This document shows positions 20,708-25,545 of a DNA stretch of 64,000 nt, one piece after another. The DNA comes from a phage, in the sequence record PX092659.1; one strand, 5' to 3'. The notes under the pieces are model-generated. The model saw nothing but the letters and a program-made list of their open reading frames with translations, was not told the origin of the DNA and did not search any database. Position 1 is the first letter of the stretch. Every line of letters begins with the position of its first letter. The position numbers and the translations under genes were made by a program.

Positions 20708-21130
20708 ATGAGTACTGAAAATAGAGTTATAGACTTAGTGATAGATGAGAAAGTACCTTATGGTCTAATGATGCAATTCTTAGATGTTGATGATAGTACT
20801 TATCCACCTACAAATACCCCTGTTAACTTAACAGGGTATTCCCTAAGGGGTACTATAAAGGCCGGGCTTGATGAGAACGCGGAAACTTTGGCATCTTTTA
20901 CTACTAAAATTATTGATGCTGCTCAAGGTGCTATAGCTATAAGTTTACCTGTAGAGGCGGTAGATAATATTGGTGAAAAAGCTACCAAAGAGAGAGATAA
21001 GTATAACCCTCGCCAACGTTTTGCAGGATACTATGATATAATTATGACACGAGATGTCATAGGATCAGCTATTAGCTCTTTTCGTATAATGGAGGGTAAA
21101 GTATTTATCAGTGATGGGGTAACTAGATAA
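20708..21130 (+). CDS. collar protein (p132-like)
   Basis: 140 aa, between pb4-like gene and L-shaped fibre genes, same size as T5 p132. Confidence 0.5.
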
Positions 21131-23481
21131 TGGCAATAACTACTAAGATTATTGTACAACAAATATTAAATATTGATGATACTAAAGCTACTGCTAGTAA
21201 ATTTCCTAGATACACAGTAACTCTTGGAAATTCTATTAGCTCTATTACTGCTAATGAGTTAGTATCTTCTATAGAGGCTGCTGCTAAATCTGCTGCGGCT
21301 GCAAAAGATTCTGAAATAGCTGCTAAAACCTCAGAACTTAATGCTAAAAACTCTGAACAGGAAGCTGCTATTTCTGCTGGAGCTTCTGAAGCTTCTGCTA
21401 CTCAGTCTGCTACCTCTGCTACTCAGTCTGCCACTTCTGCTACTAAATCTGCAGAATCAGCTGCAGCTGCAAAAACCTCTGAAACTAATGCTAAGTCTAG
21501 TGAAACAAAAGCTAAAACTAGCGAAACTAATGCAAAAGCTAGTGAAACAAAAGCTAAAACTAGCGAAACTAATGCAAAAGCTAGTGAGGATAAGGCAAAG
21601 GCTAGCGAAACTAATGCTGCTGCATCGGCGGCTGATGCAAAAATTAGTGAAGATAAAGCAAAAACCAGTGAGACTAATGCAGCTCAATCAGCGGCTGATT
21701 CTAGCGGTTTTAGGAATGAGGCGGAAATATTTTCTGGGCAAGCTGCTGCATCGGCATCTGCGGCAAAAATCTCTGAAACCAATGCAAAAACCTCGGAAAC
21801 AAAAGCTAAGGCTAGTGAAACTAATGCTGCGGGATCTGCAACTTCTGCCAGCCAATCTGTAGCTGCTATTCAAGTACTTAAATCAGATGTCGAACAGTTA
21901 AAATCTGATACCCAAGCCATTAAAAATAGTGCTGTAACAGAGACAACAGCTTTAAAAGCGGATGTAGAACAGTTAAAATCTGATACCCAGGCCATTAAAA
22001 ATAGTGCTGTAACAGAGACAACAGCTTTAAAAAACCAAGCTGCAACTTCTGCAACTAATGCTGCTAATTCTGCAGCAGAAGCGGGGGGACAGGCTACTGC
22101 TGCTGCTAATAGTGCTAATACTGCTAAAACTGAAGCCGATCGTTCAAAAACTGAGGCTGATAGATCAGAAGCTGCTGCTAATTCTACCCCCGACATTCAA
22201 CCTCTTCCAGATGTATGGATACCGTTTAACGATTCTCTAGATATGATCACCGGCTTTGCACCAGGCTATAAAAAAATAACAGTCGGTGATGAGGAAATAA
22301 CACTGCCTAGTGACAAAATTGTCTCGTTTTCCCGCGCGAGTTCCGCGACCTATATCAATAAGTCCGGCGCTCTTACCATTGCAGAAATTAATGAGCCACG
22401 TTTTGAAAAAGAAGGGCTGTTAATTGAAGGGCAGAGAACTAACTATCTAAAAAATTCTAATACACCGGAATTGTGGTACTACCACAGTTTACTGGCGAAA
22501 GAGTATGGGGTTGATAATTACGGTTTTAATTATGCAACCGTCACCGTGACAGACAGCCTTGTAGGCACAACCAGTAGTTATCAGATTCATAGTGTAACTG
22601 GAGAGAACAGGTTTTCTCTGTCCATCGGTGAAACCTGCACTTTTTCTGCCCGCTTTCGTGGAGTTAATTCACGTTGTCGCGTCCATATATCTCTTGTTAT
22701 TGGCGAAAATGTTAAAACATCTGTTGATGTATGTCTGGAGCCAGATACAGGTGAGGTTAAGGCGTACGGTAATAAGGCGCTGGTGACATTCAGAACGGAA
22801 AAACAGGGGGACTGGTGTTACTTTGAAACAACATATACCGCCGCAGAGAATATTGACGAAGTGGTATGCGGTTTTTTTATAACCAATCCTGAAGATGGTG
22901 GTTTTTCTTCTGATTCGTCATTAACAATGACTACGCCACAAATTGAAAAGGGGTCATGTGCTTCATCATTTATAATCACAGGAGAAACGCCAGCAACTCG
23001 CGCTAGTGACATGGTTTTTATACCAACCGATTGCAATGAACCATCATCTATACCGTTAAGTCTACTTGTTGAGGTAAATAGAAATTGGGATATAGCCCCA
23101 AACTCAGCTCCAAGGATAGTACATGTAGCAAATTTACCAGAAGACCAGTTATTAGTTGCTTTCAGGGTTCCATCAAGCGATACAGTAGAGCCGCTGCCTT
23201 ATTCTCAGTTGGGGGTCAGTCAGTCATTTACGCCAGTATCAACAAAAACAAGCGGGAAAATGGTGACGGGTTTTGTTTGCAACAAAAGCTCAGAATTAAG
23301 ATGCGTAACAAACGCTGTGTTCGGTGCGCCTGTGAAAACAACATGGAAAGCTGGTTTATCTAAAAATCTTCGTATCGGCGGCATAAGTGCAGATGGTGGT
23401 AAACATCTTTTCGGGCATGTCAGAAATTTTAGAATCTGGCATAAAGAATTAACGGATCGTCAAATGAGGGAGTCTGTGTGA
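21130..23481 (+). CDS. ltfA: L-shaped tail fibre protein A (LtfA-like), C-terminal lectin-like receptor-binding domain
   Basis: 783 aa; N-terminal Ala/Ser/Thr/Lys-rich repeat shaft (SETNAKA-type repeats), C-terminal domain with composition shift and ...GHVRNFRIWHKELTDRQM ending resembling LamG/concanavalin-like domains. Confidence 0.68.
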   Translation: MAITTKIIVQQILNIDDTKATASKFPRYTVTLGNSISSITANELVSSIEAAAKSAAAAKDSEIAAKTSELNAKNSEQEAAISAGASEASATQSATSATQSATSATKSAESAAAAKTSETNAKSSETKAKTSETNAKASETKAKTSETNAKASEDKAKASETNAAASAADAKISEDKAKTSETNAAQSAADSSGFRNEAEIFSGQAAASASAAKISETNAKTSETKAKASETNAAGSATSASQSVAAIQVLKSDVEQLKSDTQAIKNSAVTETTALKADVEQLKSDTQAIKNSAVTETTALKNQAATSATNAANSAAEAGGQATAAANSANTAKTEADRSKTEADRSEAAANSTPDIQPLPDVWIPFNDSLDMITGFAPGYKKITVGDEEITLPSDKIVSFSRASSATYINKSGALTIAEINEPRFEKEGLLIEGQRTNYLKNSNTPELWYYHSLLAKEYGVDNYGFNYATVTVTDSLVGTTSSYQIHSVTGENRFSLSIGETCTFSARFRGVNSRCRVHISLVIGENVKTSVDVCLEPDTGEVKAYGNKALVTFRTEKQGDWCYFETTYTAAENIDEVVCGFFITNPEDGGFSSDSSLTMTTPQIEKGSCASSFIITGETPATRASDMVFIPTDCNEPSSIPLSLLVEVNRNWDIAPNSAPRIVHVANLPEDQLLVAFRVPSSDTVEPLPYSQLGVSQSFTPVSTKTSGKMVTGFVCNKSSELRCVTNAVFGAPVKTTWKAGLSKNLRIGGISADGGKHLFGHVRNFRIWHKELTDRQMRESV
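21499..21582 (+). repeat. exact 42-bp tandem duplication inside fibre repeat array
   Basis: agtgaaacaaaagctaaaactagcgaaactaatgcaaaagct occurs twice in tandem (21499-21540, 21541-21582), in frame (SETKAKTSETNAKA); part of degenerate repeat array approx 21280-21870. Confidence 0.85.
21886..22035 (+). repeat. 75-bp tandem direct repeat (2 copies) in ltfA
   Basis: 21886-21960 and 21961-22035 differ at 2-3 positions; encode 25-aa repeat DVEQLKSDTQAIKNSAVTETTALKA. Confidence 0.85.
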
Positions 23482-23756
23482 AAGATATAATATTAAAATT
23501 TAAAGACAAGAACGAATATAAAAATTTCTTAGTTGGAATAAACTGGCAAGAAAATGAAGAGTTACTAGATATGTTTCTCCTGGACGAGATTGGCTATACT
23601 TATACTGAAATCTCCGCACCAGGCGATGAGGAACCTAGATACATCCGTAATGAAGGATACTATGTTAATGTAAGGATTCTTGATGAATCCTTTACTTATG
23701 AATACTTTGAGCCTTTTATAGTTCAGTTGGAACAGCCTCTTAGAGAGTGGGCGTAA
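23478..23756 (+). CDS. hypothetical protein between fibre genes
   Basis: 92 aa, GTG start overlapping ltfA stop (GTGA), acidic; possible fibre assembly factor (inference from position only). Confidence 0.4.
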   Translation: MKDIILKFKDKNEYKNFLVGINWQENEELLDMFLLDEIGYTYTEISAPGDEEPRYIRNEGYYVNVRILDESFTYEYFEPFIVQLEQPLREWA

Positions 23757-23765
23757 GGTTTTATA

Positions 23766-25496
23766 ATGGTAACTAAAACAGTAATTCCTACGGATATTAC
23801 AAAACTTAAAAATGAGTCACTTAACAAGAATAATAATTTAAGTGACTTAGCAGACCGTGCAGCAGCATGGTTAAATGTGCGTCCTATTGGGTCCACCCCT
23901 CTTGCGGGGGATCCTGTTGGGGACTATGATGCCGCAACTAAACGTTGGGTAGAGAATAAGATTAACACTGGTACAGTCGGTCCTACTATGAACGGCGTTA
24001 TGAATTACGGGGTTGGTGATTTCCACCTTCGAGATAGTCGTGCGTATATCCAACCGTACGAAGTGGTTTCTGACGGTCAATTACTGAATCGTGCAGACTG
24101 GCCTGAACTCTGGGCATACGCTCAAATGGTTGGTGTTATAGAGGATTCCGTATGGTTAGCGGATAAATTTCAGCGTGGTAAGTACTCATCTGGGGATGGG
24201 ACAACAACCTTTCGTGTTCCAGATAAGAATGGGGTGCAGGAGGGATCAATACGTGCTCTTTATGGCCGTGGAGATGGTGGGAATAGTGGTGCAAATGGGC
24301 AACTGTTCGAATCCGCTGCGCCTAATATTACAGGTTTTTTCACCACTTATGCCTCTCAAACCTACGGCCAAGTATTAGGTCAAACAGGTGGTTGTTTTAA
24401 TGCAAACAATAATGCTTTCCCTGACGGAAGAGGTGACGGAATCCCACCAGGAAGTACAGCTCTTTCTGGACGTTATAACACCTGTGACTTCAATGCTTCA
24501 ATTTCAAGTCCGATTTATGGCGCATCCACTGATGAAATCCTTACGCGCAACTTTGTCGGTGTGTGGGTAATCCGCGCGTCGGGGGGATTCGTTGCTGCAA
24601 ATACATCATGGAGTGTTATTAACGCTGATAAAACAACTCCCAATTCAGGTGTTGTTGTTTTTGGTGGCAGTGTTAAATCTGAATATAAATCACCCGGTGC
24701 AAATGTAACAGCGGAACTAAAATCAAGTAAAGTAATTAATGGCGCATGGGGTGTTAGCTTAACTATAACAGATGATAGAGGGATCCCTGTAAGCATTAAG
24801 TATGACAGTAATGGTCAGTTTTCAACATCTCATAGGCCATCTGGAGTCGGTACTGGGAGTTCCTATACTCATTGCGCTTATCGCGCGCCAGACTGGTGGA
24901 ATAACACAGCATATAGTGCCTTCGTACCAATTCTTGGAGGTGGTAGCGGTAACTCACTAAAGAACTATAGATCTTTTGCTTGTTTTGGACAAATATCTTA
25001 TCCTGATTCTAGTAATAGTTATCCTAGAGCTGCAATTGCTCAAGTAAGGGATTGGGCACTACCAGATGGTGAACAAGGTAACGGCAAGAGTATTACCGTG
25101 TTTACGTTTATTGATAATTCATTTGACCTTCAATATGGGTACAACGATGGTTCGCTAAACTATATTTTTTCAAAATCTCCAATTTGTGATGAAAGATTAA
25201 AGAAAAATATTGAATCCATTGATACTAATATTGCAATAAGTAATATTAAGCAGATGTTATATAAATCATACATCTATAAAAATGACGAGAATGAACAGGT
25301 GCGCCGTGGTTTTATAGCTCAGGATTTACAGAAAATAGATCCCCAATATGTGCGGGAATATGGAGATCCTGGAAGAGAGAAAACGTTGGCCATTGATGAA
25401 AACGTTATGTTGCTTGATTCAGTTGCTGCGGTTAAGTGGCTTATTAATAAAGTTGAGGAGTTGCAAGAAGAAATAAATGTATTGAAAGCTAAGTAA
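23766..25496 (+). CDS. ltfB: tail fibre protein with phage-tail-collar domain and C-terminal intramolecular chaperone domain (LtfB-like)
   Basis: 576 aa; N-terminal region with collar-domain-like segment (LNRADWPELWAYAQ...TTFRVPD); C-terminus RRGFIAQDLQKIDPQYV...LAIDENVMLLDSVAAVKWL matches S74-type intramolecular chaperone/autoprotease module. Confidence 0.7.
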   Translation: MVTKTVIPTDITKLKNESLNKNNNLSDLADRAAAWLNVRPIGSTPLAGDPVGDYDAATKRWVENKINTGTVGPTMNGVMNYGVGDFHLRDSRAYIQPYEVVSDGQLLNRADWPELWAYAQMVGVIEDSVWLADKFQRGKYSSGDGTTTFRVPDKNGVQEGSIRALYGRGDGGNSGANGQLFESAAPNITGFFTTYASQTYGQVLGQTGGCFNANNNAFPDGRGDGIPPGSTALSGRYNTCDFNASISSPIYGASTDEILTRNFVGVWVIRASGGFVAANTSWSVINADKTTPNSGVVVFGGSVKSEYKSPGANVTAELKSSKVINGAWGVSLTITDDRGIPVSIKYDSNGQFSTSHRPSGVGTGSSYTHCAYRAPDWWNNTAYSAFVPILGGGSGNSLKNYRSFACFGQISYPDSSNSYPRAAIAQVRDWALPDGEQGNGKSITVFTFIDNSFDLQYGYNDGSLNYIFSKSPICDERLKKNIESIDTNIAISNIKQMLYKSYIYKNDENEQVRRGFIAQDLQKIDPQYVREYGDPGREKTLAIDENVMLLDSVAAVKWLINKVEELQEEINVLKAK

Positions 25497-25503
25497 AAGA
25501 AAA

Positions 25504-25545
25504 CCCCAGAGGGCTATCCCTCTGGGGTTTATTATTATTATTTAT
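25504..25545. terminator. bidirectional intrinsic terminator between convergent late and early modules
   Basis: CCCCAGAGGGCTATCCCTCTGGGG hairpin flanked by A-run upstream and TTTATTATTATT downstream; lies between stop of ltfB (+) and stop of dut (-). Confidence 0.8.

Follow-up and report, generated by a model that had tools for sequence, protein, structure and literature searches.

A predicted T-shaped distal fibre and the small protein p92 in the lateral tail fibre operon of a T5-like phage

The window analysed here is a 64,000-nt stretch of phage record PX092659.1, and our subject is a group of its lateral tail fibre genes, namely ltfA, which encodes the proximal fibre, p92, which encodes a small acidic protein, and ltfB, the second fibre gene (coordinates in Table 1). 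The explanation that we consider probable is that LtfB is a T-shaped distal fibre that docks serially on LtfA, with p92 likely aiding the C-terminal end of LtfA. The fibre itself is known in kind; what is new is a set of genomic rules and a testable role for p92, the representative of a widespread and uncharacterised protein family. The more useful result is the rule that p92 obeys: it is invariably encoded behind fibres with a terminal LamG-type domain, and it lies upstream of every distal fibre examined that carries the N-terminal anchor motif IP.DIT.LK.

An earlier note on this DNA, made from the sequence alone, had read an acidic open reading frame (ORF) of 92 amino acids (aa), coupled by GTGA to the ltfA stop codon and followed by a fibre gene of 576 aa. 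Both ORFs are present at the positions it gave. The coupling could be read directly from the sequence, with GAGGGAG ahead of the GTGA, and the product of the small ORF is indeed acidic (isoelectric point 4.26, with 20 Asp and Glu residues versus 9 Lys and Arg residues). Both genes are real, as the order ltfC, ltfA, small ORF, second fibre is annotated also, among other phages, in Escherichia phage EC100, in phage IrisVonRoten and in Salmonella phage L6jm, and p92 is under purifying selection, with a median ratio of nonsynonymous to synonymous substitution rates (dN/dS) of 0.155 at loci that have a distal fibre and of 0.33 at loci without one, where divergence is low. The 4-nt overlap between the fibre stop codon and the p92 start codon is kept in 92 of 96 related loci, with ATG as the start codon in 68 loci and GTG in 28. 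A programmed frameshift that would fuse LtfA to p92 was considered and rejected; the p92 frame is open for just 11 codons before its start, and no obvious slippery heptamer was found on reading.

From the 96 loci we extracted gene triplets, consisting of the upstream fibre gene, p92 and the downstream gene. p92 sits behind the C-terminal module shared with LtfA in 86 of the 96, and the only part common to the upstream fibres is their C-terminal ~470 residues (305–783 in the LtfA of the window, ~40% identity), which end in ...HLFGH(I/V)RNFRIWHK.LTD.Q, while the N-termini are lineage-specific. The downstream gene takes two forms. The first is a fibre of 234–586 aa that starts 9–12 nt past the p92 stop codon and whose only common part is an N-terminal M(V/A/T)T.T.IP.DI(T/K).LK; the second, found in lambdoid prophages (e.g., phage 21 and mEp460), is a membrane protein of ~97 aa, and p92 is present there in phages that have no distal fibre at all. 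This conserved, predicted membrane protein (MDISPLLHALCAVAAQ...) is encoded after p92 in phage 21 (locus L004, 5292–5585) and mEp460 (locus L011, 4292–4579), and in PhiR49 (locus L014, 5007–5300) it comes after the distal fibre instead; possible identities are a moron and an exclusion protein. The reverse test gave the same association. A DNA pattern for the anchor had 88 matches in IMG/VR, with p92 within 450 nt upstream in 84 of the 84 that could be loaded, and there was no random match. A second allele of the cassette occurs in T5-like phages such as fp01 (locus L197, 2551–6945; also L196, P0217, P0230, P0276 and P0315). It consists of an LtfA with the same kind of end strand, a p92 homologue of 101 aa and a T-shaped fibre with an N-terminal domain of 155 aa, which starts MALRIDKINLK and precedes a fibre body up to 91% identical to that of the window LtfB. 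Phages of other types also have the LtfB body, joined there to different N-terminal anchors.

An exhaustive search of 1.84 billion representatives extended the p92 family to members of 25–45% identity. We looked up eight such distant members, and the upstream gene was visible in seven of these contexts. It ends in a LamG-type terminal strand in all seven (e.g., VYHIRNFRIWHRLLTLNQINGLR, FGTIRNLRIWHTALSDSQVKTLS and IKRIAYYNRRITNQELQGITS), and at one locus the gene before the LamG-ended gene carries Pfam Laminin_G_3. The downstream genes are diverse: we found an S74 fibre that begins MANRID... or MALRID..., a holin with an amidase behind it, a protein of 76 aa that is hydrophobic in its C-terminal half and has a lysozyme gene further downstream, and other small proteins. 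Given that the LamG-ended upstream gene is constant and the downstream gene is variable, the invariant partner of the p92 family is the upstream LamG-ended protein. The small ORF had been suggested to encode an assembly or attachment factor, and its association with fibres is borne out; its invariant genomic partner, however, is the upstream LamG-ended fibre and not the second fibre.

LtfB is 50% identical over residues 1–576 to Gp24 of IrisVonRoten (Bas32), which occupies the same operon position. Gp24 was described as a T-shaped fibre with two receptor-binding domains and an intramolecular chaperone, attached to the proximal fibre Gp22 (Humolli et al., 2025, PMC11990801). Judged by its sequence, LtfB is a homologue of this T-shaped, dual-receptor-binding-domain distal fibre and represents another allele of an architecture already described; the T-shape and the serial attachment are taken from the literature on the homologue. 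Among 60 LtfB homologues, the invariant columns are concentrated at aa 40–307, and aa 313–473 have almost no conserved columns. On the full protein, the single above-threshold Pfam match is Peptidase_S74. A collar-like segment in LtfB, as proposed earlier, is backed mainly by the published description of the 50%-identical Gp24 (PMC11990801). The Pfam Collar model gave no match on whole LtfB and, on a 90-aa fragment, reached 20.7 bits, below the cut-off of 24 bits, covering only the GDGTTTFRVPD end of the profile. PDB sequence searches with LtfB returned no match to T4 gp12. The AlphaFold2 (AF2) monomer of LtfB has a mean predicted local distance difference test score (pLDDT) of 56.6 and is low in the collar region, and only its intramolecular chaperone is usable.

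We propose that these proteins work together as follows. LtfA would be fixed to the tail through LtfC and would carry its own lectin-like end domain. LtfB would be the distal receptor-binding part, built of a 15-residue anchor, a stem with a gp12/collar-like domain, a hypervariable second tip domain and an S74 chaperone, which would drive folding of the LtfB trimer and then be cut off at Cys474. Having no tail-attachment domain of its own, LtfB would insert its anchor into the C-terminal module of LtfA, which is conserved; we place the dock within LtfA 305–783 and/or p92 because no other parts are shared by all phages whose distal fibres have that anchor. p92 would be translated in step with LtfA by way of the overlapping stop and start codons and would act on the C-terminal end of LtfA as an assembly factor in trans, in the position that Tfa has in lambda. 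LtfA is expected to need some folding aid because it has no S74 domain and yet must trimerise and present its lectin-like end. Some Tfa proteins remain bound to the fibre, and p92 may do the same and become an accessory subunit of the joint into which LtfB fits. The likeness to lambda Tfa, Mu/P2 Tfa and T4 gp38 lies in the position of p92 directly after a fibre gene without an intramolecular chaperone, in the translational coupling and in the co-transfer with the fibre C-terminal domain. In contrast to these proteins, p92 is half the size, its cognate fibre is LamG/galectin-ended, and its comparison with tail fibre assembly chaperones (Tfa/Caudo_TAP, gp38 and gp57A) found no similarity in sequence or fold. 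Because of the Tfa-like position, the coupling to LtfA, the co-travel with the LtfA C-terminal module and the persistence in phages without a distal fibre, we favour the view that p92 acts on the tip of LtfA, whether as an assembly factor or as an accessory subunit, and we rate the chances of this as even or slightly better.

Several points weigh against this proposal. Many of the 96 counted loci are redundant E. coli prophages, so that the counts show consistency and not independent events. The rule that the anchor IP.DIT.LK has p92 upstream would fit a structural adaptor equally well, and so would the co-variation of p92 subtype with anchor subtype, in which the 92-aa type goes with IP.DIT.LK and the 100-aa type with MALRID/MANRID. 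In a Mantel test on 18 distinct triplets, p92 distances correlated with those of the LtfA end (r = 0.68) and of the anchor (r = 0.71), which does not separate the two neighbours; such near-equal correlations are uninformative because linkage alone would give them. The searchable papers contain no virion proteomics or genetics for any member of the p92 family, and the self-cleavage of LtfB, in which a Cys replaces the catalytic Ser, is a prediction.

The strongest of the alternatives, which we nevertheless consider rather unlikely, is that p92 is a structural joint or adaptor like T4 gp35/gp36, placed between the tip of LtfA and the anchor of LtfB and serving the attachment of LtfB rather than the folding of LtfA. 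The T4 fibre genes lie in the order 34-35-36-37, and the order proximal fibre, p92, distal fibre mirrors it; in both systems a small protein is encoded between the proximal and distal fibre genes, and the gene order possibly mirrors the physical order. The occurrence of p92 upstream of the anchor motif in 84 of 84 cases also speaks for such an adaptor, as do the co-variation of subtypes, which includes the second allele in fp01/IME178-type T5-like phages, and the correlation of the distance matrix of the C-terminal half of p92 with that of the anchor (r = 0.76). However, a correlation between neighbouring genes is what plain linkage predicts, p92 has no homology to gp35/gp36, and a fold comparison found no similarity to known adaptors. 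In addition, p92 remains intact and under purifying selection in many lineages in which membrane-protein or lysis genes come next and there is no distal fibre. The adaptor and assembly roles are not mutually exclusive.

The presence of a C-terminal intramolecular chaperone in LtfB, read by the earlier note, was confirmed in both sequence and fold. PF13884 matches residues 474–529 with 51 bits against a cut-off of 22, and a profile of the 60 homologues matches the chaperone-bearing PDB chains 7dc3, 6f45 and 8jov. The S74 region of the AF2 model has a pLDDT of 85–92, and Foldseek aligned it with MyRF ICA (7dc3, E = 8e-6, TM 0.61–0.65), followed by the endoNF intramolecular chaperone (3gw6, E = 0.06). 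Canonical S74 domains reportedly have the motif S-D-x-R-x-K, with Ser as the nucleophile and Lys as the base. In LtfB the nucleophile position is taken by Cys474 (codon 25185–25187) within the motif C-D-E-R-L-K479, and there is thus no Ser-Lys dyad. The Cys is found in all 18 clusters (at 90% identity) that are 77–97% identical to LtfB; a single more distant cluster also has it, whereas 81 other homologues carry Ser. As Cys474 is conserved throughout the clade, it is a lineage trait and not a sequencing error. The 60 homologues all have Lys479, and nearly all of them have Asp475 and Arg477. In other autoprocessing systems that work by an N-to-O/S acyl shift, the nucleophile may be Cys, Ser or Thr interchangeably. 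Self-cleavage of LtfB at Cys474, as predicted from the sequence, probably still occurs. Of the claim that the fibre trims itself, the S74 module therefore stands, whereas the trimming is not assured with the nucleophilic Ser replaced by Cys.

The alternative for this domain is that the S74 module of the Cys clade is not autoproteolytic, so that the chaperone stays on or is removed otherwise and the mature tip is unlike canonical T5-like tips. The replacement of SDxRxK by CDERLK in the window and its 18 related clusters, set against Ser in 81 homologues, is consistent with such a loss. We consider it unlikely, given the invariant Lys479 and the nearly invariant Asp475 and Arg477, an otherwise intact domain that folds confidently (pLDDT 85–92) and the retention of the Cys across the 77–97% identity clade, which argues for function. 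T5 pb1 (Ltf) and the K1F endosialidase share with LtfB the C-terminal S74 domain, the conserved Lys and the intramolecular-chaperone-like fold, but the window has Cys at the nucleophile position, and the T5 fibre is a single gene.

Some related distal fibres have irregular annotations. The products of KurtStettler (locus L005, 5289–6821) and HMD-P4 (locus L016, 4786–5787) are annotated "putative lateral tail fiber chaperone", a label that may have been taken over from "Chaperone of endosialidase", the name used in Pfam; with their IP.DIT.LK anchor, both look like receptor-binding fibres and not chaperones. The distal fibre ORF of Salmonella phage VSe12 stops after 64 aa (locus L009, 6289–6483), and that of phage NG_A1 (locus L097, 5001–6730) is annotated as two coding sequences (CDS) though it is 97% identical to the window LtfB. 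These interruptions could be frameshifts, sequencing errors or real pseudogenes.

p92 itself belongs to a large family. Its sole family match is PHROG 1361, where no function is assigned; Pfam and NCBIfam scans gave no match, and a PDB sequence search gave noise only. By tblastn, p92 was found in 166 phage records, which include T5-like phages, lambdoids (phage 21 and mEp460), Dhillonvirus, Seuratvirus, Nonagvirus and Warwickvirus, and a profile search collected 360 protein clusters, many of them in E. coli chromosomes and all of the named ones called hypothetical. The family spans at least six phage lineages; Queuovirinae, Drexlerviridae and distant metagenomic phages are among its carriers, and it has the consensus M(K/R)D.YL(K/R)F..EM..L..GF...(V/I)D(V/I)IG...G(Y/W)(H/Y)VN(L/I)R(V/I)...P.tP.RVWA. 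The AF2 model of p92 is a ferredoxin-like alpha+beta sandwich with two helices above a pLDDT of 90, and a disordered C-terminal tail bears the invariant R89 and W91, which in this model looks like a binding motif. A Rosetta-stone search of the 1.84 billion representatives for natural fusions of p92 with a fibre found none, the long matches being PKD-repeat arrays. The searchable literature on an adaptor or chaperone at this locus, including the virion proteomics of Seuratvirus, Nonagvirus and T5-like phages, contains nothing on p92. In the IrisVonRoten paper, "Gp23" appears a single time, apparently in error for Gp22, and the 92-aa gene itself is not discussed (PMC11990801).

The matches to PKD arrays suggest a third alternative, in which p92 would be a diverged PKD/Ig-like beta-sandwich module, acting as a free-standing decoration or carbohydrate-binding domain and not as a chaperone. 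The p92 profile does match tandem PKD_4 arrays in giant proteins, and hhalign gave a probability of 90% against one repeat and of 94% against an alignment of repeats. We do not trust this match as homology because single repeats score only 8–15 bits, the template repeats were picked by the p92 hidden Markov model itself, distant p92 members do not conserve the INW element responsible for the match, and the AF2 model contains the two confident helices. The Pfam PKD models, moreover, have no match on p92, and we regard this possibility as quite improbable.

The closest described system is that of IrisVonRoten, which has the identical operon of ltfC, proximal fibre, 92-aa gene and distal fibre. 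The first ~70 residues of LtfB are identical to those of Gp24, and p92 is 78% identical to its counterpart. The two loci differ in the tip region (aa ~313–473) and in the intramolecular chaperone, which has SDSRLK in IrisVonRoten and CDERLK in the window, and the lectin-like domain of the window LtfA is another variant. The published model of IrisVonRoten is serial, with a proximal fibre that carries a lectin-like domain and a distal T-shaped fibre that holds two receptor-binding domains in one chain (PMC11990801). The branched fibre with dual receptor specificity that had been suggested for the window is plausible as far as several receptor-binding domains are concerned, but in the model of the homologue the second fibre is not a side branch.

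Branched lateral tail fibres made of LtfA and LtfB were described for DT57C and DT571/2 (Golomidova et al., 2016, PMC4728585; Ayala et al., 2023, PMC10713586; PDB 8hqz), and the earlier note had pointed to DT57C ltfA/ltfB for comparison. The parallel did not hold. DT57C is a T5-like phage with LtfC and a homologous N-terminal anchor of LtfA, and its LtfA contains a region, residues 511–826, that is homologous to the stem and gp12-like module of the window LtfB: residues 14–312 of LtfB match PDB 8hqz chain d (DT57C LtfA) 526–826 with a phmmer E of 3e-126, and by BLASTP residues 3–311 are 63% identical to DT57C LtfA 511–825. The window LtfB therefore corresponds to the distal half of DT57C LtfA and not to DT57C LtfB. 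In DT57C this module is fused in-frame within LtfA, whereas in the window it belongs to a separate polypeptide, predicted to be attached non-covalently. The DT57C genes ltfA (gp108) and ltfB (gp107) are adjacent and both have S74 (PMC4728585, PMC10713586), whereas the window LtfA has no S74 domain and p92 intervenes, and the locus type therefore differs from that of DT57C. The DT57C LtfB starts MSRPLMPKSG, an anchor unrelated to that of the window LtfB, and 30 kb of DT57C around the tail genes contain no p92 homologue. A DT57C-type fibre in the window, with LtfA as a complete self-cleaving fibre, LtfB as a side branch and the small ORF incidental, would agree with the published branching (PMC4728585, PMC10713586), with the pair of fibre genes that follows ltfC in this T5-like phage and with the homologous LtfA N-terminus, but it is contradicted by these sequence differences and by the conservation of the small ORF across at least six phage lineages, and we regard it as very improbable. 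The operon type is that of IrisVonRoten/EC100, not that of DT57C.

Which O-antigen types a T5-like phage can get through depends on its lateral fibres, and these therefore set the host range of phages for therapy and biocontrol. The p92 family, with its hundreds of clusters, has no name and no Pfam model and is undiscussed in the searchable literature. If p92 is an assembly factor or a joint, it must accompany such fibres when they are engineered or transplanted, and it would mark a ready plug-in point for the exchange of receptor-binding proteins. More tentatively, the LamG/galectin-ended module, p92 and the short anchor may form a portable "socket, helper and plug" cassette by which unrelated receptor-binding fibres can be swapped onto any proximal fibre. 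Such a cassette would have spread to many E. coli prophages and to six or more siphophage lineages. p92 would then found a new class of fibre-joint proteins (chaperone and/or adaptor), with a family reaching well beyond enterobacterial phages to any LamG-ended tail protein. The unusual Cys at the LtfB self-cleavage site could, in addition, inform the mechanism of S74 domains.

The features of the locus are listed in Table 1. The gene order in the window is ltfC, ltfA, p92 and ltfB, followed by a terminator hairpin, which is the end of the fibre operon. Inspection of the sequence within the operon revealed no convincing internal transcription signals, and because of this and the hairpin at the end, the four genes look like one transcription unit. 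Neighbouring genes in the window include those for pb3 and pb4 (both with full Pfam support) and LtfC (PF23926); dUTPase, flap endonuclease and SbcCD-like genes lie on the other strand. These neighbours identify a T5-like phage (Tequintavirus). In a Megablast search, the region was 91% identical to Escherichia phage EC100 and relatives and 85% identical to Salmonella phage L6jm.

Table 1. Features of the lateral tail fibre locus (positions in the window)
Feature	Position	Strand	Basis or remark
ltfA, proximal lateral tail fibre (783 aa)	21130..23481	+	ORF list; homologous to IrisVonRoten Gp22
Mobile C-terminal module of LtfA, about aa 305-783	22042..23478	+	~40% identity across phage lineages
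GTA (gene-transfer-agent) head-spike-fibre-like domain of LtfA, aa 431-625	22420-23004	+	NCBIfam GTA_spike_fiber, 70.8 bits
Translational-coupling junction	23463..23481	+	Shine-Dalgarno GAGGGAG, 5-nt spacer, GTG start overlapping the ltfA TGA stop (GTGA)
p92, small acidic protein (92 aa, GTG start)	23478..23756	+	ORF list
ltfB, second fibre gene (576 aa)	23766..25496	+	ORF list
N-terminal anchor of LtfB, aa 1-15, MVTKTVIPTDITKLK	23766..23810	+	Only part common to otherwise unrelated distal fibres (234-586 aa)
Conserved stem and gp12/collar-like receptor-binding domain 1, aa 14-312	23805..24701	+	Same module in-frame in DT57C LtfA (511-826)
Hypervariable distal region, aa 313-473, presumed T5-like receptor-binding domain 2	24702..25184	+	Homology to IrisVonRoten Gp24
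Peptidase_S74 intramolecular chaperone, aa 474-576, and stop codon	25185..25496	+	Pfam, PDB profile, fold
Bidirectional intrinsic-terminator hairpin, 13-bp stem, 8 GC pairs	25501..25530	.	Between convergent ltfB and dUTPase genes

LtfA is 64% identical to IrisVonRoten Gp22. Its residues 1–209 form a tail anchor of the T5/DT57C type, and Pfam found no S74 domain on the protein. The C-terminal module is shared with the side fibres of T5-like, lambdoid, Dhillonvirus, Queuovirinae and Warwickvirus phages, whose N-termini differ. The protein ends in a lectin-like (LamG/galectin) domain whose last strand is HLFGHVRNFRIWHKELTDRQMRESV; on the window LtfA, Laminin_G_3 gave a mere hint (E = 0.11), and a galectin-like domain was reported in the IrisVonRoten homologue (PMC11990801). 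A profile search with LtfA also matched the head spike fibre of the Rhodobacter gene-transfer agent, RcGTA Rcc01080 (PDB 6tb9). The N-terminal third of LtfA contains tandem DNA repeats in the shaft, at 21385–21699 and 21886–22032, with periods of 21, 42 and 63 nt and a 75-nt unit present twice at 97% identity; they encode heptad-like segments rich in Ala, Ser, Thr and Lys and produce long spurious ORFs on both strands. In phage fp01, LtfA (locus L197, 2551–4454) is called as two overlapping CDS, which could be a frameshift, a sequencing error or a real pseudogene.

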